A DNA stretch of 64,000 nt, taken from assembly GCF_001677475.2 (NCBI RefSeq), contig NZ_CP015229.1, one strand, 5' to 3'. Both the position numbers and the translations under genes were made by a program. Each line of letters starts with the position of its first letter. Position 1 is the stretch's first letter. A model generated the notes under the pieces. It saw nothing but the letters and a program-made list of their open reading frames with translations. It was not told where the DNA came from and ran no database searches. Shown here piece after piece: positions 8,610 to 20,372 of the stretch. This DNA is from Escherichia coli. Its GTDB lineage: Bacteria > Pseudomonadota > Gammaproteobacteria > Enterobacterales > Enterobacteriaceae.

Positions 8610-8962
8610 AGAGATTCTTTTTGTTTTTCTTTTTGTCGGGATGCACTGTTGGTGATTATGTTCGCCCATTGTTACCCGGTAGTGTATATTTGCAAGACGG
8701 ACAGATTTGTTCAAAACCAGACGATGGGAATATTATTTCAAATTATGTTTTATATGAAGGTAAATATGGCAATGCAATAAAGTTGAAAAGAGTGACAGGT
8801 CAGTTCGAACCCGTATGTATTGATATAAGTGAGCTATCTTCAGATGTTATGTATATCGGGAAATATATGCTCTCTTCCGGAAGTAAAAAAGAATACTATG
8901 GTTTTAGCATAATTAGAACCGGAGAACGTATTTTAAGACTTGATGATAATCATATCAAATAA
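8606..8962 (+). CDS. Small lipoprotein (candidate periplasmic immunity/inhibitor protein)
   Basis: 118 aa; N-terminus MKRFFLFFFLSGC has signal peptide plus lipobox (LSGC); ATGA overlap with upstream HExxH gene. Confidence 0.55.
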   Translation: MKRFFLFFFLSGCTVGDYVRPLLPGSVYLQDGQICSKPDDGNIISNYVLYEGKYGNAIKLKRVTGQFEPVCIDISELSSDVMYIGKYMLSSGSKKEYYGFSIIRTGERILRLDDNHIK

Positions 8963-9183: not shown

Positions 9184-11178
9184 ATGAGTTTTGCAGCTAC
9201 AGATTATCCATCCGGCGCACTAACTGGATCGGGTACACATAACGTGACTTTGAGCGGCAGCGCAGTTCCTGATGGAATGTTACTGTTTGCAAGCTTAGGG
9301 GGTACAGAAACAGTAGGGGAACTATTTACTTATTCTATTAAATTAAAAACTCCTGACATCCTGAACCTGGGCTATGTTTCCCCCGCAGCCAACCTACAGC
9401 TCAAACCGATGGTGGGCAAAGATCTGTGCGTCAATATCGAATTGGATGGCGGCGGAAAACGTTACATCAGCGGGCTGGTGACGGCGGCACGCGTGGCTGG
9501 TCATCAAGGACGTTCGGTGGTGTATGAACTGCGGCTCGAACCGTGGTTAAAAATACTGACCCACACTAGTGACTACAAAGCGTTTCAAAATAAAAACGTG
9601 GTGGAGATCCTGGATGAGGTACTGGATGAGTACCCCTGGCCAGTGGAAAAACGACTGGTGGAAAATTATCCGACTCGCGCCTGGCAGGTGCAGTACGGTG
9701 AAACAGATTTCGATTTTATTCAGCGCCTGATGCAGGAGTGGGGTATCTACTGGTGGTTTGAGCACAGCGAGAACAGTCACACGTTAGTGCTGGCTGATGC
9801 CATTAATGTCCACAAGGCATGCGCAGATTCGCCGCTGGTGTGTTATTACCAGAAAGGGCTGAAACTGGACAAGGAGTTTATCCATACCATCACAGCAAAT
9901 GAAAGTCTGCGCAGCGGACAGTGGGTGCTGAATGATTTCGACTTTATGAAGCCGCGTTCACTGCTGAAGAGCACCGTGGCTAATCCGCGTGAAACCGGCC
10001 TTGCTGAATATGAGCACTACGAATGGCCGGGAGATTACTTCACAAAGAGTGAAGGTGAAATGCTGACACGCATTCGCATGGAAGAACAGCGTAGCCCCGG
10101 TAGTCGGGTACAGGGCAGCGGCAATATTCGTACCCTGATAACGGGTTTTACCTTCACCCTGGAAAACTATCCGACAGCCGAAGTGAACCGGGAATATCTG
10201 CTGGTACAGACCACGCTATTTATACAGGACAATGCGCAACACAGCGGCCAGGAGCAGCATTTCTCTTACTCAACCAGCTTTGAACTGCATCCCACCAGCG
10301 AAGTTTACCGCCCACAACGAACCCTGTGCAAACCCCACACTAAAGGCCCGCAGAGCGCAATCGTCACCGGCCCGGCAGGGCAGGAAATCTGGACAGATAA
10401 ATATGGACGGGTGAAAGTTCAGTTTGGCTGGGATCGTTACGGTAAGAATGACGAAAATAGTTCCTGCTGGGTCCGTGTCAGTTATCCGTGGGCGGGTAAA
10501 GGATTCGGTGGCATTCAGATCCCGCGCATTGGTCAGGAAGTACTGGTGGATTTCAAAAACGGTGATCCGGATTTACCGATAATTGTTGGGCGTACCTACA
10601 ACCAGGACACCATGCCACCGTGGGGACTACCGGGCGCAGCGACGCAAAGCGGATTTTACAGTCACACTATCGGCGGCGGCCCAACCAATGCCAACGCACT
10701 ACGTTTTGAGGATAAACCTGGCGGTGAAGAGGTCTGGCTACATGCCGAAAAAGATCAGCGGATTGAAGTAAATAATAATGAAAGCCACTGGGTGGGCAAT
10801 AATCGCCTTAAAGTCATTGATAAAACAGAAACAGCGATAATTGGTGAGGAACGTTCTCTTACAGTTCAGATGGATGATACCTCCCTTGCCGGACAAAACA
10901 AAACGATTCAGGCCGTACAGAATTTACGCCTTGCTGCGGGAGATTCCATAATTCTTAGTTGTGGGAACACTATCCTGCAAATGACCAGTGACGGAATATT
11001 TAATATAACCTGTAAGAATTTTAATATTACTGCAACAGAAAATGGAAAGATAAATACACAATCAGGTCAGCTTGATTTAAATATGAATAACAGGGCGGCA
11101 GATATACTTCCGCCTGGAACATCGGAAAAAACAGCCCTTCAATTGGCGATAGACGTCGCCTTCATGACTAAAAAATAA
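9184..11178 (+). CDS. vgrG: Type VI secretion spike protein VgrG
   Basis: 664 aa; N-terminal gp27-like and gp5-like OB/beta-helix sequence (e.g. [60 protein letters not shown]). Confidence 0.9.
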
Positions 11179-11228
11179 ACAAAAACCATCATTAAATAAT
11201 TTATTAATTTAAAAGGACTCATATCATT

Positions 11229-11681
11229 ATGACGGAGTATTATCTCAATGAAACTGTTGTAAGTTTTTCCGGGAATATTATTCAGGACAGTACTATTAAT
11301 ATGCTTCGCCTCAGCGATCCCGACGCTGCACTCATTATCAGCCGGGGCCAGATGCAGGAAGGAGACGAATTAGCCTCCCAGATTGAACAGCAAATGAAAA
11401 AACTGGAGAAACAGGTAAAGGATCTTCACTACACGCCCGTTCAGGTAACACGGGTGGGGATTAATGACGGTGAAGAAGGACTGGAAATACAGAGCCAGTT
11501 TCTCCGGGGTAACGAGCAGGTGTACCAGTGTCAGGTGGCATTTGTATTGCCGGGTGAGCGGGTCATGATGGCCTTCACCTACGCCCGAACCACACCGCTG
11601 ACCCCGGCAGATATGACGCGCTGGGCTGAAATTAAAAAGAATCTGCGCTTCAGGATGCGGCAGGAAGCCGGGACGAATTAA
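11229..11681 (+). CDS. DUF1795/Eag-family chaperone for prePAAR effectors
   Basis: 150-aa ORF between vgrG and the prePAAR Rhs gene; size and position typical of Eag/EagR chaperones; sequence-level family call not verified. Confidence 0.6.
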   Translation: MTEYYLNETVVSFSGNIIQDSTINMLRLSDPDAALIISRGQMQEGDELASQIEQQMKKLEKQVKDLHYTPVQVTRVGINDGEEGLEIQSQFLRGNEQVYQCQVAFVLPGERVMMAFTYARTTPLTPADMTRWAEIKKNLRFRMRQEAGTN

Positions 11682-11699
11682 TCACACAGGGAACGGGAC

Positions 11700-14600
11700 A
11701 TGGAAGAGGCATTCTGGGCGGCAAGGCAGGGTGATGCCCTGCTGCATACGTCGTTTATGGCAGATGTGCTGGGGGCAGTTGTAGAGGTTGCCGCCACAGC
11801 CCTGGTGGATGTTCTGGTTGTCGGAACCATGGCGGCGCTGGGCGGAGTTGAAGTGGCAACGCTGGGCTGCTCAACCATTTTAGCGATCGGTATAGCAACA
11901 GCGGTATTTATGTCGTATCAGGGCTGGAATGACCGAATCAGTAGGGAAAGTGAGCAACTGGCGAACTGGCTTTTCCCGCCTCAGATTGAAGGTTACATCC
12001 TCACCGGCTCTGGCGACACATGGATCAACAGCAAACCTGCCGCGCGGGCCGCGGCGACTGCGGCATCGCGGCAGGACATTGAGGCGCAGGAGGCGCAGGC
12101 GAAGGCGGAACAGGAAGAAGCGCAGCGTCAGGAGGATGCCAGAACGTTCCTGGATGTGGCCGGGGAATATCTGGAAATGGCGGGGGCCATAGCCCTGGCG
12201 GTTAACCCGGTGACAGGGCCTGTGCTGATGTCCCGGGCGCTGCACGACCAGCTCAGTACGGAAGAAGGGCGTTCTGAAATGGTGGATGGCGTGACACATT
12301 TTGTGTCGGAACTATGGCAGCCCACCGTGGCCAGTGCGGCCCCGGGCTCCACCCCGACCCCTGACGATAAAATCGACTGCCATAAACATCCCTCCTCACT
12401 GACGCAGTTTCTCGCACAAAAAAAAGCCGCCTTTCTGGATGACCCCCTGGGAACGGCCCTTAACCTGCTGAGTCCGGGCGGTATGCTGGAAACCGCCTTT
12501 CAGGGAGTGAATGCGGTTATTGGCAGCATCAGTAATCTGTTCAAAGGCGATGATGAACCGCCCGCAGCGGAATATATCGCGGAAGGCGCGCGGGATGTGC
12601 GTATCAACAGCCAGCCGGCGGCACGCAGCGGGGCACGCTGCACCTGCGAGGCCAGGGTGGTGAATGAGCCGGGGAACGGGGCGTTTGTGTCACCGGATGT
12701 CCGCATTGGCGGTCCGTTACTGGTGGTCAGGGATATCAGAAGCGGCAGGTCGCAGATAACCCTGGTGGCAACCGTGGCGCTGATGTTTCTTCGCCCGGGC
12801 AAAATGCTTTCTAAAATCGCCTGTTTTGCTGCCAGTGTCGGGATGGGGGTGATGACGCAGAAGGCCATCAGTGCCCTTCCGCATCCGGTCAATGCCGCCA
12901 CCGGAGCCAAATATCTGGCCGATGACGATGATTTTGACTTCAGTCTGCCGGGCCACTTTCCGCTGGACTGGCAGCGCGTGTACAGCAGTCGTGACGACCG
13001 CACGGAAGGGATGTTCGGGCAGGGCTGGAGTGTAATGTATGAAGTCAGCCTCGAGCGCACGCCGGGTACTGCTGACGAAAACTGTATGACCTTTGTGTCG
13101 GGCATGGGACGACGTCTGGATATGGAGGCCGTGCTGCCGGGGAGCGGGTTTTACAGCCCCGGCGAAGGACTGGCAGTACGGCGGGGTGAGCAGGGGCACT
13201 GGCTTATCAGCAGCGATGACGGGCAGTTTTTTCTGTTTGAGGCCGACCCGCGTCACCCGCAGCGCCAGCGGCTGAAAATGCTGGGCGACCGCAACAGCAA
13301 CTGTCTGAATCTGTACTACGACGAGCTGGGGCGCATCACGCAAATCAGCGGTGAACAGCAGCGTCCGTGCATCCGTCTGCATTATGAACTGGCGGCGCAT
13401 CCCCGGCGGGTGACACAGATTTATCAGCATTTCCCTGAGATGGCTCCTTTACTGCTGCGTCGTTACCGCTATGACGAGGCCGGCGACCTGAACGGCGTGT
13501 ACGACAGCACGGGGCACCTGCTGCGCGAGTTTGCTTACGACGAAAACCACTGCATGACCCTGCACCGCCAGCCGGGCGGCGAAGGGTATTATTACCAGTG
13601 GGGCTGGTATGAAGGCCCGGATGACGCAGCGTGGCGGGTGACGGGGCACCACACGGACAGCGGTGAACAGTACCGGCTGGCGTGGAGCCTGGCGGCACGC
13701 AGGCTGTGCGTGACGGACGGGCTGGGGCGCACGCGTTATCATCAGTGGGACGCGCAAAATCAGGTGACGGCGTACCAGGACGAAGCCGGGCAGGTGACGA
13801 CGTTCCGCTGGAGCGACGAAGAACGGCTGTTACTGGGAATGACCGATGCGCAGGGCGGCAAATGGCGCTATGTGTATGACCGGCAGGGGCATATCACGGA
13901 GACGCACGACCCGCTGGGGCGGGTGGCACAGACACAGTGGCACCCGGTGTGGCACCAGCCGGAAACGGAGGTGGACGCGGCGGGGAACAGCTGGTGCTGT
14001 GAGTACGATGAACGCGGCAATCTTCTTGCGGTGACCGACCCGCTGCAGCAGAACACCCGGTATCAGTATGACCGCCACGGCCAGGTGGTGCAGATAACGG
14101 ATGCGCGCGGGGGGAATAAATACCTTCAGTGGAACGAAGACGGGCAGCTCATGCGGCACACGGACTGTTCCGGCTCGCAGACGGCCTGGTTCTACGACGA
14201 ACGCACGCGGCTGATACGGATGACAGACGCGCAGAGCCACAGCACGCGCTACGGGTATGACGACAGCGGCCACCTGACGGAGGTGATACTGGCGGACGGC
14301 CGCACGGTGAATTACCAGTCGGACGCGGCGGGCAGGCTGGTGAAGTACACCAGCCCGATGGGGAGGATAACGCGCTGGCAGCGGGACGGGCAGGGCCGGG
14401 TGCGCAGCCGGACAGACGCGACGGGGCGCAGGACGGCGTTCGGGTACGATGCCTACGGGCGTCTGGTCACGCTCACGAACGAGAACGGAGAAAGCTACCG
14501 GTTCCGCCATGACGTGCTGGACCGTCTGGCGGAGCAGATAAATCCGGACGGCTGCCGCCAGACGTACCGCTACAACGCGCTGAACGCGGTCACGGAAGTG

Positions 14601-16415
14601 GTGTTCACCGGGGACCGGGGCGGTGAAATCCGCCACCGGCTGGCACGTGATGCGGCGGGCCGGCTCACGGCAAAGGAGACAGCCGATGGCCATACGGAAT
14701 ACGTCCATGATGCGGCAGACCAGCTACTGGAAATCCGCCGCCGACGGTCGGATGCCGGGGAAACAGACGCACCGGAGATTATCCGTTTCAGTTACGACAG
14801 ACTGGGGCGGATGCTGACCGAGGAGACGGCGCAGGGCGTCCTGACCCATCAGTACGATGAACTCAGCAACCGGACAGCCACCACCTTTCCGGATGGCAGA
14901 ACGCAGCGTCATCTGTACTACGGCAGCGGCCATCTCCAGCAGATAAATCTGGACCGGGAGGTCATCAGCGAGTTCACACGTGACGCCCTGCACCGGGAAG
15001 TGCTCAGAAGTCAGGGGCGACTGAGCACGCGGCAGCTTTATGACCCCGCCGGGCGGCTGAAGCGCAGGGAGACATACAGCGGGATGCGCGGGGTGGTACC
15101 GGAGACGTTCACGGACCGGCAGTACAGCTACAGCGGCGAGGATGAATTGCTGAAGACGCGGCACAGCCGGCGGGGGGAAACGGATTACGTCTACGACCCC
15201 ACGGGGCGCATCACGGCGTGCCGCTCGGAGGATGAGGGGTATCTGGCGAGCTGGCAGTACGACGCGGCGGGAAACCTGCTGGGGAGGCGCGCGGGGGAAA
15301 GGGCCACGGCAGAAAACAGCGTGGTGCCGTTCAACCGGCTGATGTCTTACCGTGGTGTGCACTACCGTTATGACGAATTTGGCCGGACGGTGGAAAAGGA
15401 GGGCCGGAGCGGCACGCAGAGTTACCGTTATGATGCGGAACACCGGATGGTGGAAGTGACGACAGCGCGGGGGACATACCGGTATGTGTACGATGCGCTG
15501 GGGAGGCGGACGGAAAAACAGCACATCAGCCCTGACGGTAAAGCGTACAACCGGACGACATTTTTATGGGACGGAATGCGGCTGGCGCAGGAGAGCAGGC
15601 CGGAGGGAATAAGCAGCCTGTATATCTACAGCGACCCGGGGAGTTATGAACCGCTGGCGCGGGTGGATAAGGCGGGCAAAGAGGGCCCGAACCGGATACT
15701 GTATTTTCACACGGATGTGAACGGTGCGCCGGAAGAGATGACGGACAGTGACGGGAAAATCGTGTGGGAGACGGGGTATCAGGTCTGGGGTAACACGATA
15801 CAGGAGAAGGACCACGGCGGGGTGGAGCAGAACCTGCGCTACCAGGGACAGTACCTCGACAGGGAAACGGGGCTGCACTACAATCTGCACAGGTACTATG
15901 ATCCGGATGTCGGGCGGTTCATGGTAACGGACCCGATAGGGCTGGCGGGGGGGCTGAATCTTTATACTTATGCGCCTAATCCAGTAAGCTGGATAGATCC
16001 CCTTGGTTTAAGTTGTTACTTTAATTCTAAGTCTAATCGCTGGCATGACAGGCAGACAGGTCGTTTTACAAAACGACCAACAGATCCTTCAGAATTAGTT
16101 CATAATGGCCGAATTGACAAGGCTGATATAGATGTTTGGGCTAGTCAAGGAGGGATTCCAAATACATGGGGGCATGATCCGTTAAAATTCCCCAGTGGTG
16201 GTTTTAAATATGATGCTGGTAATTATACTGTTCATGGTCATGGTGCTAATCCATCTGCGGCAGCTAAATTTCCTAATTCTAATGCGGCAAATGGGCCGAC
16301 AGCGAGCATGAAAAATACTTCAACAGGTGAAGTGTTTAGAACCGATGGAACTTGGGGGACATTCAAATCAGATGCCAATGGTGCTCATATCCCCCTTGAT
16401 GGCTCACCTTATTGA
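11700..16415 (+). CDS. Rhs-family T6SS effector with N-terminal prePAAR motif, transmembrane segments, PAAR region, YD-repeat shell and variable C-terminal toxin domain
   Basis: 1571 aa; AARQGDALLH matches the prePAAR AARxxDxxxH motif; hydrophobic stretches follow; two ...PAAR... segments; numerous YD repeats; DPIGL...DPLGLS demarcation then low-GC 134-aa tail. Confidence 0.9.
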   Translation: MEEAFWAARQGDALLHTSFMADVLGAVVEVAATALVDVLVVGTMAALGGVEVATLGCSTILAIGIATAVFMSYQGWNDRISRESEQLANWLFPPQIEGYILTGSGDTWINSKPAARAAATAASRQDIEAQEAQAKAEQEEAQRQEDARTFLDVAGEYLEMAGAIALAVNPVTGPVLMSRALHDQLSTEEGRSEMVDGVTHFVSELWQPTVASAAPGSTPTPDDKIDCHKHPSSLTQFLAQKKAAFLDDPLGTALNLLSPGGMLETAFQGVNAVIGSISNLFKGDDEPPAAEYIAEGARDVRINSQPAARSGARCTCEARVVNEPGNGAFVSPDVRIGGPLLVVRDIRSGRSQITLVATVALMFLRPGKMLSKIACFAASVGMGVMTQKAISALPHPVNAATGAKYLADDDDFDFSLPGHFPLDWQRVYSSRDDRTEGMFGQGWSVMYEVSLERTPGTADENCMTFVSGMGRRLDMEAVLPGSGFYSPGEGLAVRRGEQGHWLISSDDGQFFLFEADPRHPQRQRLKMLGDRNSNCLNLYYDELGRITQISGEQQRPCIRLHYELAAHPRRVTQIYQHFPEMAPLLLRRYRYDEAGDLNGVYDSTGHLLREFAYDENHCMTLHRQPGGEGYYYQWGWYEGPDDAAWRVTGHHTDSGEQYRLAWSLAARRLCVTDGLGRTRYHQWDAQNQVTAYQDEAGQVTTFRWSDEERLLLGMTDAQGGKWRYVYDRQGHITETHDPLGRVAQTQWHPVWHQPETEVDAAGNSWCCEYDERGNLLAVTDPLQQNTRYQYDRHGQVVQITDARGGNKYLQWNEDGQLMRHTDCSGSQTAWFYDERTRLIRMTDAQSHSTRYGYDDSGHLTEVILADGRTVNYQSDAAGRLVKYTSPMGRITRWQRDGQGRVRSRTDATGRRTAFGYDAYGRLVTLTNENGESYRFRHDVLDRLAEQINPDGCRQTYRYNALNAVTEVVFTGDRGGEIRHRLARDAAGRLTAKETADGHTEYVHDAADQLLEIRRRRSDAGETDAPEIIRFSYDRLGRMLTEETAQGVLTHQYDELSNRTATTFPDGRTQRHLYYGSGHLQQINLDREVISEFTRDALHREVLRSQGRLSTRQLYDPAGRLKRRETYSGMRGVVPETFTDRQYSYSGEDELLKTRHSRRGETDYVYDPTGRITACRSEDEGYLASWQYDAAGNLLGRRAGERATAENSVVPFNRLMSYRGVHYRYDEFGRTVEKEGRSGTQSYRYDAEHRMVEVTTARGTYRYVYDALGRRTEKQHISPDGKAYNRTTFLWDGMRLAQESRPEGISSLYIYSDPGSYEPLARVDKAGKEGPNRILYFHTDVNGAPEEMTDSDGKIVWETGYQVWGNTIQEKDHGGVEQNLRYQGQYLDRETGLHYNLHRYYDPDVGRFMVTDPIGLAGGLNLYTYAPNPVSWIDPLGLSCYFNSKSNRWHDRQTGRFTKRPTDPSELVHNGRIDKADIDVWASQGGIPNTWGHDPLKFPSGGFKYDAGNYTVHGHGANPSAAAKFPNSNAANGPTASMKNTSTGEVFRTDGTWGTFKSDANGAHIPLDGSPY

Positions 16416-16425
16416 GATTATTAAT

Positions 16426-16755
16426 ATGAATTTGCAAGAAATAAAAAATAAAGTCTTATCTCTTCCTACAATAATGAATTTAGCGGATGAGCTATTAATA
16501 ATTGACGAGTTGATGACTATTGATGTTAATGATTTGATTGAAAATCAAGATATCTTTAAATCTATTATAGATGCATTAGAATTATCACATATTGATTCTG
16601 GGTTTATGGAGTTAACAGAAGAAAATGAGAGTTCATTTATAAACTTCTACAAATGGCTTAATAAAACAAATAATAAATTTAACTTGGGAATAAATGCTAA
16701 CACTATAGATAGTTTTAGTTTGACTGTTGAAGATGTGAAAAAAATGATGTTATAG
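16426..16755 (+). CDS. Candidate Rhs immunity protein
   Basis: Track ORF 16327..16755 overlaps the rhs 3' end; first ATG after the rhs stop is 16426 (109 aa); AT-rich like the Rhs C-terminal domain; position immediately after toxin domain. Confidence 0.5.
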   Translation: MNLQEIKNKVLSLPTIMNLADELLIIDELMTIDVNDLIENQDIFKSIIDALELSHIDSGFMELTEENESSFINFYKWLNKTNNKFNLGINANTIDSFSLTVEDVKKMML

Positions 16756-16800: not shown

Positions 16801-17130
16801 TCAACTCTCGTTCAGTACACTAAACATCCCGTTCCGCATCCCCTTAACCACCTGTTTAACCTGATAAAGCTCCTCCCGCAGTTCCTGCATCTCGTCACTG
16901 TCAGCGATGATGGTCAGGCACCCATCCGAGATCTTTACAGTCACGCCTGTCCCGGTATCAAATCCCGCCTCTTTCAGCCAGTCGCCCTTAAGGTGCAGGC
17001 TGGGGTGTTGTGAATAATACCGGGCTATACCGGTTGTGCGATCTTCGTGGCGGGCTCTGACATAGCCGACTTTATAGCGGCGCTGTGTTTTGGAAATGGT
17101 GACTTCTGGCGTAATATCGTGTTCAGCCAT
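16801..17130 (-). CDS. SymE-family toxin homolog (AbrB-fold, type I toxin family), copy 1
   Basis: 109 aa; LHLKGDWLKEAGFDTGTGVTVKISDGCLTI resembles the K-12 SymE core (LKGQWLEAAGFATGT...EGCIVLT) as I recall it; GAGGTAG RBS. Confidence 0.8.
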   Translation of the reverse strand: MAEHDITPEVTISKTQRRYKVGYVRARHEDRTTGIARYYSQHPSLHLKGDWLKEAGFDTGTGVTVKISDGCLTIIADSDEMQELREELYQVKQVVKGMRNGMFSVLNES

Positions 17131-17432: not shown

Positions 17433-18722
17433 AGGGAAAGATCACGTAATGCTGCTTTTTTGTACTAAACAATTCGCATTTTATGTTTAAAAATTGAGAT
17501 ATTCCTCATTACATAAAGCTGTTTTTTATTGCTTATACATGATCAAATACTCCTTACATAATTAAGGAGAACAAAATGGAACTTAAAAAATTGATGGAAC
17601 ATATTTCTATTATCCCCGATTACAGACAAGCCTGGAAAGTGGAACATAAATTATCGGATATTCTACTGTTGACTATTTGTGCCGTTATTTCGGGTGCAGA
17701 AGGCTGGGAAGATATAGAGGATTTTGGGGAAACACATCTCGATTTTTTGAAGCAATATGGTGATTTTGATAATGGTATTCCTGTTCACGATACCATTGCC
17801 AGAGTTGTATCCTGTATCAGTCCTGCAAAATTTCACGAGTGCTTTATTAACTGGATGCGTGACTGCCATTCTTCAGATGATAAAGACGTCATCGCAATTG
17901 ATGGAAAAACGCTCCGGCATTCTTATGACAAGAGTCGCCGCAGGGGAGCGATTCATGTCATTAGTGCGTTCTCAACAATGCACAGTCTGGTCATCGGACA
18001 GATCAGGACGGATGAGAAATCAAATGAAATTACAGCTATCCCTGAACTTCTTAACATGCTGGATATTAAAGGAAAAATCATCACAACTGATGCGATGGGT
18101 TGCCAGAAAGATATTGCAGAGAAGATACAAAAACAGGGAGGTGATTATTTATTCGCTGTAAAAGGAAACCAGGGGCGGCTAAATAAAGCCTTTGAGGAAA
18201 AATTCCCACTGAAAGAATTAAATAATCCAGAGCATGACAGTTACGCAATTAGTGAAAAGAGTCACGGCAGAGAAGAAATCCGTCTTCACATTGTTTGCGA
18301 TGTCCCTGATGAACTTATTGATTTCACGTTTGAATGGAAAGGACTGAAGAAATTATGCGTGGCAGTCTCCTTTCGGTCAATAATAGCAGAACAAAAGAAA
18401 GAGCCAGAAATGACGGTCAGATATTATATCAGTTCTGCTGATTTAACCGCAGAGAAGTTCGCCACAGCAATCCGAAACCACTGGCACGTGGAGAATAAGC
18501 TGCACTGGCGTCTGGACGTGGTAATGAATGAAGACGACTGCAAAATAAGAAGAGGAAACGCCGCAGAATTATTTTCAGGGATACGGCACATCGCTATTAA
18601 TATTTTAACGAATGATAAGGTATTCAAGGCAGGGTTAAGACGTAAGATGCGAAAAGCAGCCATGGACAGAAACTATCTCGCGTCAGTCCTTGCGGGGAGC
18701 GGGCTTTCGTAATCTTGCCCTG
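17432..18722 (+). mobile_element. ISAs1-family (H-repeat type) insertion sequence, intact copy
   Basis: About 1.29 kb; imperfect terminal inverted repeats CAGGGAAAGATCAC / (rc) CAGGGCAAGATTAC; single 378-aa transposase ORF. Confidence 0.75.
17576..18712 (+). CDS. ISAs1-family transposase (H-repeat-associated protein)
   Basis: 378 aa; sequence strongly resembles E. coli H-rpt proteins (YdcC/YhhI type) from memory. Confidence 0.85.
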
Positions 18723-19280: not shown

Positions 19281-19320
19281 AGCCGGAGTGCTATTAAATC
19301 TTCCGGCTTTTTTATTATTT
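19281..19320. terminator. Bidirectional rho-independent terminator (copy 2)
   Basis: AGCCGGAG-loop-CTTCCGGCT hairpin followed by TTTTTTATTATTT. Confidence 0.55.
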
Positions 19321-19648
19321 AATTCTCGTTCAGCACACTAAACATCCCGTTCCGCATCCCCTTAACCACCTGTTTAACCTGATAAAGTTCCTTCCTCAGT
19401 TCCTGCACCTCGTCGCGCTCCGCAATCAGGATCAGGCACCCCTCCGAGATTTTCACAGTCACGCCCGTCCCGGTATCAAATCCCGCCTCAGCGAGCCAGT
19501 CGCCTTTAAGGTGCAGGCTGGGGTGCCGTGAATAATACGTGGTCATGCCTGTTTTACTGTTCTGATGGCGGGCGCTGACATAGCCCACCTGATACTGGCG
19601 CTGTGTTTTGGAAATGGCGACTTCTGGCGTAATATCGTGTTCAGCCAT
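19319..19648 (-). CDS. SymE-family toxin homolog, copy 2
   Basis: 109 aa, about 80 percent identical to copy 1 by eye; same RBS and flanks. Confidence 0.8.
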   Translation of the reverse strand: MAEHDITPEVAISKTQRQYQVGYVSARHQNSKTGMTTYYSRHPSLHLKGDWLAEAGFDTGTGVTVKISEGCLILIAERDEVQELRKELYQVKQVVKGMRNGMFSVLNEN

Positions 19649-19889: not shown

Positions 19890-20372
19890 ATGGAACTTAA
19901 AAAATTGATGGAACATATTTCTATTATCCCCGATTACAGACAAGCCTGGAAAGTGGAACATAAATTATCGGATATTCTACTGTTGACTATTTGTGCCGTT
20001 ATTTCGGGTGCAGAAGGCTGGGAAGATATAGAGGATTTTGGGGAAACACATCTCGATTTTTTGAAGCAATGTGGTGATTTTGATAATGGTATTCCTGTTC
20101 ACGATACCATTGCCAGAGTTGTATCCTGTATCAGTCCTGAAAAATTTCATGAGTGCTTTATTAACTGGATGCTTGACTGCCATTCTTCAGATGATAAAGA
20201 CGTCATTGCAATTGATGGAAAAACGCTCCGGTACTCTTATGACAAGAGTCGTCGCAAGGGAGCGATTCACGTTATTAGTGTGTTCTCAATAATGCACAGT
20301 CAGATTCCTTGGAAGATCAAGACGAATAAAAAAACAATGAGATTACAGCTGTTTCTGAATTTCTTAACATAA
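19890..20372 (+). pseudogene. Degraded second ISAs1/H-repeat transposase gene (N-terminal 130 aa conserved, then divergent and truncated)
   Basis: 160-aa ORF identical in its first part to the intact copy, then diverging into ...[31 protein letters not shown]; element upstream sequence conserved from about 19745. Confidence 0.7.

Follow-up and report, generated by a model that had tools for sequence, protein, structure and literature searches.

The gene considered here encodes an Rhs effector in a 64,000-nucleotide stretch of Escherichia coli DNA (contig NZ_CP015229.1, assembly GCF_001677475.2; the whole stretch is called the window), and it is best introduced through the prePAAR effectors already described. 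Salmonella Typhimurium Rhs1 (also Rhs-main or Tre-Tu) belongs to class I of the prePAAR effectors and uses SciW as its chaperone and VgrS as its spike. Those studies of Rhs1 that our search covered have centred on residues 1-59 bound to SciW, or on the toxin domain, and do not describe the insertions reported below. To our knowledge, no structure of an assembled prePAAR-TMD-PAAR module (TMD, transmembrane domain) exists. In the cryo-electron microscopy structure of Pseudomonas protegens RhsA (7Q97), which is cleaved before P305, the PAAR region was left unmodelled (PMC8765631). A linker of seal and anchor helices and postPAAR elements have been described for RhsA and for Photorhabdus laumondii Rhs1/Tre23 (PMC8765631, PMC8636562). 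Class II effectors carry a second TMD (TMD2) C-terminal to PAAR, measure about 450 amino acids (aa) and are without Rhs repeats (PMC7773334); in the AlphaFold3 model of one of them, PANA_2924, helices from both sides of PAAR build one bundle (PMC12605009). What the literature calls a split PAAR is a prePAAR parted from PAAR by the TMD, and insertions within the PAAR domain went unmentioned in the prePAAR and Rhs effector literature covered by our non-exhaustive search.

In the E. coli effector, the PAAR domain is divided by the TMD and by two further modules, which we call insertions A and B. We consider it probable that the protein is a class I prePAAR Rhs effector in which four pieces form one PAAR cone, and in which the helical insertions are accessory modules that do not span a membrane. 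The four pieces (aa 7-16, 93-121, 208-233, and 290-345) would reassemble into a canonical Zn-tipped cone capping VgrG. Between them would lie three spliced-in modules, namely the TMD bound by Eag (aa 19-91) and two helical insertions, A (aa 122-207) and B (aa 234-289). The protein is of a known kind, and its architecture is an under-described, incremental elaboration.

The Salmonella enterica Rhs proteins matched in our searches, probably S. Typhimurium Rhs1 (STM0291/SL1344_0286), are 61% identical over all 398 N-terminal residues. They likewise have the prePAAR, a single TMD, a long insertion A (115 aa from the PAAR motif to the invariant Cys, versus 110 aa in E. coli), and insertion B (65 aa), and they share the gene order vgrG, eag, rhs. 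They differ in the TMD (37% identity), in a nested extension within insertion A (23%), in the C-terminal toxin, and in the C-terminal end of VgrG.

Four pieces of the PAAR domain

The Rhs open reading frame (ORF) matched the Pfam families PAAR_motif (33.8 bits at aa 291-321; cut-off 27 bits), RHS_repeat (262.8 bits over 11 stretches), the RHS core, and DUF6531, the plug, which scored 69.6 bits at aa 395-473. The eag ORF (DcrB/DUF1795) ends 18 nt before rhs, and the VgrG ORF lies further upstream. These matches bear out the first-pass annotation of the bare sequence, which had named the product a prePAAR Rhs effector of the chaperone-dependent type. Its prePAAR motif was likewise recovered as AARQGDALLH, in which A7, A8, R9, D12, and H16 are invariant among the 38 relatives of our conservation alignment. 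By sequence and gene context, the effector is a class I prePAAR protein of the Eag-dependent type, with the AARxxDxxxH motif, a PAAR completed by the prePAAR, an Rhs/YD cage in a protein of at least about 1200 aa, and Eag and VgrG nearby. It has a single TMD N-terminal to PAAR, only aa ~21-68 exceeding the Kyte-Doolittle threshold of 1.6 by which alone transmembrane segments were called.

The literal string PAAR occurs exactly twice in the ORF, at aa 113 and 306. The first lies in WINSKPAARAAATA (aa 108-121), followed by the acidic QDIEAQEAQAKAEQEEAQRQEDA (aa 125-147), and the second in VRINSQPAARSGARCTCEA (aa 300-318). The domain had been described as interrupted by a long non-PAAR sequence that includes a charged Gln/Glu/Ala stretch, and this stretch corresponds to a predicted acidic helix at aa 124-147. 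A gap of about 200 residues had also been claimed. The two motifs are indeed 192 residues apart, but the space between them holds two insertions around a middle piece that had been overlooked (aa 208-233).

A phmmer search of the PDB sequences matched RhsA in three collinear pieces, which places the conserved F.S.MW.PTVAS.APGS...D...C.KHP midway in the supposed single insertion. We joined aa 1-17, 93-121, 205-235, and 290-345 into a 133-aa sequence, whose Pfam PAAR score was 47.8 bits, up from 33.8 bits before splicing. This joined sequence aligned to the orphan PAAR proteins VCA0105 (4JIV) and c1882 (4JIW) and to Tre23, with KHP abutting IA.G..V.I.G.PAAR; in the orphan PAARs and Tre23, IA.G follows directly after KHP, and there is no insertion B. 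These results indicated a PAAR domain in four pieces, split by the TMD, insertion A, and insertion B. The orphan PAARs hold the same fold in about 95 contiguous residues, whereas the effector here spreads it over 339 residues with three intervening modules. Conserved positions were found in each of the later pieces: G103, N110, and A114-A118 are invariant in piece 2; in piece 3, which aligns to ...DKPKHP... of 4JIV and 4JIW, D223, C227, and H230 are invariant, and P208 and V210 are so or almost so; and A294, G296, N303, P306, A307, R309, T315, and C316 are invariant in piece 4.

We modelled aa 1-398 with AlphaFold2 from the 38-sequence alignment (mean predicted local distance difference test score, pLDDT, 75.7; predicted template modelling score 0.69). 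The beta pieces reached a pLDDT of 89-95, including strands at aa 95-100 and 112-114 of piece 2 (pLDDT 91-95). The modelled PAAR fold superposed on an orphan PAAR over 90 of 93 residues (1.7 Å, 32% identity), a predicted conical beta fold of the kind that defines PAAR domains (PF05488; Shneider et al. 2013). Structure prediction had been proposed as a check on how a split PAAR might fold, and it returned a canonical cone from which the insertions are predicted to depart as helical loop excursions. Insertion A was modelled as four helices, at aa 124-147 (acidic, pLDDT 86-89), 150-168, 173-185, and 188-206 (pLDDT 52-77), and insertion B as helices at aa 234-247, 249-257, and 259-281, with pLDDT mostly about 77-91 and falling at the C-terminal end. 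The TMD region was modelled as helices 19-51, 58-74, and 76-91.

The helices that follow PAAR appear to be the counterpart of two known elements, the seal/anchor-helix linker in RhsA and postPAAR in Tre23. Beyond them, LPHPVNAATGAK aligns to THPVHAATGAK of 7Q97, which points to a conserved cleavage region (H/PVxAATGAK) ahead of the DUF6531 plug. By homology, autocleavage would occur at H395/P396.

The split might instead be an artefact of a frameshifted, chimeric, or mis-assembled gene, a reading to which we assign virtually no probability. No positive evidence for it was found, other than that many database homologues are partial or noisy (e.g. P0054, P0062). The gene is a single intact frame of 1571 codons' worth of protein, the same architecture recurs in Salmonella, E. 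marmotae, and Escherichia sp. E1V33, and the composition profile across the insertions showed no break and no foreign-DNA signature. The DNA of eag and the rhs N-terminus (11200-12950) was found in 198 of 5426 complete E. coli genomes at 95-99.7% identity and a coverage of at least 80%, always on the chromosome; these population data rule the artefact out.

In the Escherichia/Salmonella lineage, helical sequence that runs through the loops of a 111-residue cone makes up about 70% of the N-terminal loading region. The boundaries of a "PAAR domain" used in constructs or in hidden Markov model surveys can therefore mislead, since Pfam detects merely aa 291-321 here. The features of the locus are listed in Table 1.

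Table 1. Features of the vgrG-eag-rhs locus, in window coordinates
Feature	Position	Strand	Basis
VgrG spike protein, 664 aa	9184..11178	+	Pfam Phage_GPD 327 bits, Phage_base_V, Gp5_trimer_C
Eag-family chaperone, DUF1795/DcrB fold, 150 aa	11229..11681	+	Pfam PF08786 DcrB 68.2 bits
prePAAR Rhs effector, predicted class I, 1571 aa	11700..16415	+	single intact frame
prePAAR motif AARQGDALLH, aa 7-16, PAAR piece 1	11718..11747	+	regular expression; modelled strand E13-16
TMD region, aa 19-91, three predicted helices	11754..11972	+	Kyte-Doolittle up to 2.32
PAAR piece 2, aa 93-121, first literal PAAR (SKPAARAA)	11976..12062	+	conservation, AlphaFold2 strands
Insertion A, aa 122-207 (86 aa)	12063..12320	+	alignment, loop spacing, AlphaFold2 helices
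PAAR piece 3, aa 208-233, WQPTVAS...DDKIDCHKHP, WQPTVASAAPGSTPTPDDKIDCHKHP	12321..12398	+	conservation, alignment to orphan PAARs
Insertion B, aa 234-289 (56 aa)	12399..12566	+	Cys-to-AEG spacing, AlphaFold2 helices
PAAR piece 4, aa 290-345, second literal PAAR and C316	12567..12734	+	Pfam PAAR_motif at aa 291-321
Post-PAAR helices, aa 350-392	12747..12875	+	aligns to 7Q97 RhsA; AlphaFold2 helices 350-364, 369-392
Predicted N-terminal autocleavage site H395/P396	12882..12887	+	homology to RhsA Pro305
C-terminal toxin domain (presumed), aa 1437-1571	16008..16412	+	after PVSWIDPLGL cleavage motif (aa 1428)
Candidate immunity ORF overlapping rhs end	16327..16755	+	position only

Insertion A and the question of a second transmembrane domain

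The net charge is -11 for insertion A and -3 for insertion B, and a Pfam search of insertion A gave no match. Across the family, loop A has a common core, in which [ST]F[LF]D.A..FFSQ.WRPTVA.P comes after a linker that is acidic or rich in Pro. Within insertion A, aa ~161-197 are an extension specific to this lineage that lies inside a helix shared by the whole family, FLDxA..FFSQxW; in E. coli and Salmonella, that helix holds these ~40 further residues (FLDVAGEYL[...]HFVSELWQPTVAS). Insertion A is an enlarged form of the loop expansion seen in RhsA-like class I proteins, an acidic linker plus an amphipathic helix, with a nested helical extension of about 40 aa.

RhsA itself shares the acidic linker of loop A and FLDMAKEFFSQMWRPTVASPAPGS, followed by CTKHP, as well as the seal/anchor helices that follow PAAR and a cleavage region with HPVHAATGAK. 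Its loop A is about 45 aa shorter, a mid-sized form without the nested helical extension, and it has no insertion B, KHPPMPVQYLAEG being contiguous. Tre23 (7PQ5) and the compact class I proteins of the Burkholderia type share the prePAAR, TMD, PAAR, postPAAR, Rhs cage, and Eag. Their PAAR is compact, with C.KHP no more than about 10 residues past the PAAR motif and IAQG directly after it, and displays the insertion-free state.

The first-pass annotation had noted a second hydrophobic stretch between the PAAR segments, and had held that its interpretation would fail if the intervening region proved to be the standard second-TMD linker of class II effectors. Class II effectors (Tse6, Tas1, Tne2, PANA_2924) share with the protein here the prePAAR motif, a split PAAR, and, as the sequence suggests in our case, the dependence on Eag. 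They differ in that the second helical region, after PAAR, is a true TMD, in the missing Rhs cage, in their length of ~450 aa, and in the motif GxxxxGxxLxGxxxD, which a regular-expression search did not find in the effector. In a 19-residue window, Kyte-Doolittle hydropathy peaked at 2.32 in the TMD, 1.41 in insertion A, 0.94 in insertion B, and 1.35 in the helices after PAAR, so that no segment C-terminal to PAAR qualifies as TMD2. In Salmonella, the post-PAAR maximum is 1.05, and the stretch equivalent to that of insertion A peaks at 0.65.

[quoted passage not shown] The moderate hydrophobicity of aa 157-176, up to the 1.41 given above, favours this reading. We nevertheless judge it highly improbable: the stretch stays below 1.6, contains two prolines, is flanked by acidic helices, is weaker still in Salmonella, and is missing from most relatives, while TMD2 of class II follows PAAR in proteins that are far shorter and have no Rhs repeats (PMC7773334). 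The reading as a class II TMD2 linker was ruled out by the sub-threshold hydropathy, the missing motif, and the position. The insertions are not a second transmembrane domain, and the hydrophobic stretch noted earlier is not a conserved TMD. The comparison with characterised effectors also showed that a shorter insertion A is standard in class I, as in RhsA. Together with the long form in Salmonella, this indicates a lineage-specific enlargement rather than a one-off.

Loop lengths among relatives and the role of the insertions

To survey relatives, we combined a scan of species-representative genomes, which gave 80 loci, mostly from Pseudomonas, Snodgrassella, and Paraburkholderia but also from Pantoea, Mangrovibacter, and Brenneria, with a phmmer search run exhaustively against 1.84 billion cluster representatives, which gave 124 hits. 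Two word-index homologue searches returned nearly only partial Escherichia and Salmonella entries, and the diversity comes from the scan and the representative search. The resulting series of loop lengths spans about 120 relatives.

Loop A, measured from the PAAR motif to the invariant Cys, is 10-12 aa long in the compact forms (Burkholderia anthina L080, P0114, P0117, P0120, P0130, and P0144), 31 aa in P0134, 49-74 aa in the RhsA-like majority, 81 aa in P0068, 103 aa in P0053, 110 aa in E. coli, E. marmotae, and Escherichia sp. E1V33, and 115 aa in Salmonella. Insertion A is wholly absent from B. anthina, and Tre23 is likewise compact by alignment. Loop B, from the Cys to [FY][IL]AEG, is 8-12 aa in almost all relatives, 29 aa in P0056, 34 aa in P0068, 47-49 aa in Paraburkholderia xenovorans LB400 and one Snodgrassella alvi copy, 59 aa in P0053, and 65 aa in E. 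coli and Salmonella. Insertion B is a second loop expansion, and its frame HPSS[FLI][ST]...AEY[IM]AEG is common to E. coli, Salmonella, Paraburkholderia, and Snodgrassella, which suggests homology and not repeated invention. In a distant class I relative, the 1392-aa metagenomic Rhs P0122, loop A spans ~105 aa and shows no sequence relationship with the insertion of E. coli; loop A has therefore undergone large expansion more than once.

The insertion helices, which are acidic and amphipathic, may form an accessory shell beside the TMD and the post-PAAR helices at the spike tip. Such a shell would shield or position the hydrophobic helices and the Eag-TMD complex, with no role in VgrG binding. 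Against Escherichia sp. E1V33, the ratio of nonsynonymous to synonymous substitution rates (dN/dS) was 0.10 in the PAAR core, compared with 0.06 in insertion A and 0.18 in insertion B. In the comparison of E. coli with Salmonella, insertion B was 61% identical, equal to the average of the whole region. These values indicate that most of the inserted sequence is under purifying selection.

The insertions might instead be functionally neutral loop expansions, spacers tolerated outside a robust beta cone. Loop lengths that vary continuously (10-115 aa for A, 8-65 aa for B) speak for this, as do compact homologues such as Tre23 that are functional effectors (PMC8636562), the poor conservation of the nested extension, and the loop A of short homologues, predicted to be mostly disordered; in a model of a short Pseudomonas fulva homologue, loop A was a disordered acidic linker (pLDDT 41-54) plus one helix. 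The dN/dS values resemble that of the PAAR core, however, insertion B matches Salmonella at the regional average and shares its frame with the Paraburkholderia and Snodgrassella versions, the loop A element FLDxA..FFSQxWRPTVA is highly conserved across the family, and the insertion helices are predicted with pLDDT up to ~90. We take neutral spacers to be somewhat unlikely, and still a serious rival. An accessory shell appears better supported than a membrane-spanning or a VgrG-binding element.

Several observations weigh against accessory modules on a Zn-tipped cone. The dN/dS values derive from few substitutions, with 10 synonymous against 2 nonsynonymous changes for insertion A and 8 against 5 for insertion B. 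Between E. coli and Salmonella, identity is 23% across the nested extension (aa 161-197), whose pLDDT is 52-68; this extension looks loosely constrained and is compatible with a weakly constrained spacer. The alignment under the model is shallow, with ~3-5 of its 38 sequences carrying long insertions, so that the pLDDT of the insertions reflects little evolutionary signal. The position of the insertions relative to the TMD, Eag, and VgrG does not appear to be fixed by the model, and we found no experiments on the insertions of any homologue in the literature. The metal site is a candidate from conservation alone: H16, C227, H230, and C316 are the sole invariant His and Cys among the 38 relatives, and this set fits the proposal of Ahmad et al. 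of three Zn ligands in PAAR plus one in prePAAR (PMC7773334). The TMD begins 2 residues past H16 and insertion B 4 residues past the putative ligand H230. Given the published location of the Zn site, these offsets would anchor the TMD and insertion B near the apex.

A further reading, which seems to us rather improbable, is that the seven acidic, amphipathic insertion helices, the TMD hairpin, and the post-PAAR helices form a self-shielding bundle around the PAAR tip. Such a bundle would be similar to the pore-forming domain of colicin or the T domain of diphtheria toxin, in which a hydrophobic hairpin is buried in amphipathic helices. If so, the TMD would stay soluble once Eag is stripped at firing, and the bundle would then open on the target inner membrane; the graded loop lengths would record the stepwise evolution of a translocation domain within spike-tip loops. 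The insertions touch on how the hydrophobic prePAAR helices are arranged on the spike tip and cross the inner membrane, and the loop-length series provides natural deletion variants with which the extra helices can be probed. If these helices prove dispensable, the finding would be a caution for annotation only.

Insertion A could alternatively dock the C-terminal tail of about 30 aa of the cognate VgrG and so determine the specificity of effector-spike pairing. VgrG here has a 31-aa tail past the last beta-helix motif LDLN (window 11083-11175, VgrG aa 634-664). All 34 loci with a loop A of at least 49 aa have an upstream VgrG with a 27-34 aa tail past LDLN (pattern G..G...G.K..I...V...F), against one of the five loci with a compact or short loop; in the other four, VgrG stops one residue past xDxN. 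This co-occurrence may reflect a single clade-level event, phylogenetic non-independence being likely. Moreover, Pseudomonas aeruginosa VgrG1 runs ~27 aa past LDLN, yet its cargo Tse6 is a class II effector, and PAARs of that class look compact, as the alignment of the related Tas1 showed. The C-terminal end of Salmonella VgrS diverges although Salmonella Rhs has the same insertions, and the crystal structure of VgrS shows the tail turning back down the beta-prism (bioRxiv 10.1101/2024.12.20.629533). We therefore regard tail docking as distinctly improbable. In one metagenomic compact-PAAR Rhs locus (L083:1-2429), VgrG (at least 810 aa) has a C-terminal extension with a metallopeptidase-like HEATHAVH (HExxH) motif, and two extra small genes precede eag.

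Gene neighbourhood, TMD cassette and toxin end

The vgrG-eag-rhs island of this E. coli window sits at an rhsE-type site. In strain Res13-Lact-PER13-34, the island is flanked by ansP/yncE on one side and by a GGDEF gene plus an alkyl-sulfatase gene on the other. Homologues of the Eag chaperone in RefSeq carry the annotation "DcrB-related protein".

The TMD block (window 11754-11975, Rhs aa 18-92), compared with Escherichia sp. E1V33 (L002:582-806), showed a synonymous divergence (dS) of 1.30 and 47% aa identity. In the rest of the N-terminus, dS was 0.09-0.23 and identity 90-100%, and 140 of 150 Eag residues were identical. The TMD block reads as a recombinant cassette, and its divergence beside a near-identical Eag suggests that TMD alleles are swapped with little change in Eag.

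At the other end of the protein, aa 1437-1571 had no match in Pfam, NCBIfam, or the PDB sequences, and the ORF that overlaps the end of rhs had no family match; NZ_CP062824 has a hypothetical gene at a comparable position. The two are presumed to be an uncharacterised toxin/immunity pair.

Mu-like prophage genes for tail, baseplate, and Mom functions (361-8089; Gp45, Gp46, baseplate J, Gp48, tail fibre, tail-fibre assembly, and Mom) adjoin the vgrG island where another E. coli genome has ansP-yncE. Two small low-GC ORFs (8208-8609 and 8606-8962) lie directly upstream of vgrG, and both are conserved in NZ_CP062824, where they count as hypothetical genes; the second has a weak resemblance to the NCBIfam "putative T6SS immunity periplasmic lipoprotein" (T6SS, type VI secretion system) at 30.9 bits, under the cut-off of 43.

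Downstream of rhs, SymE type I toxin genes (16801-17130 and 19319-19648, both on the minus strand) alternate with ISAs1/H-repeat transposase genes, one full and one truncated (17576-18712 and 19890-20372, both on the plus strand). H-repeat (H-rpt) genes are a classic decoration of Rhs elements, and the SymE/H-rpt stretch may flank orphan toxin/immunity remnants.

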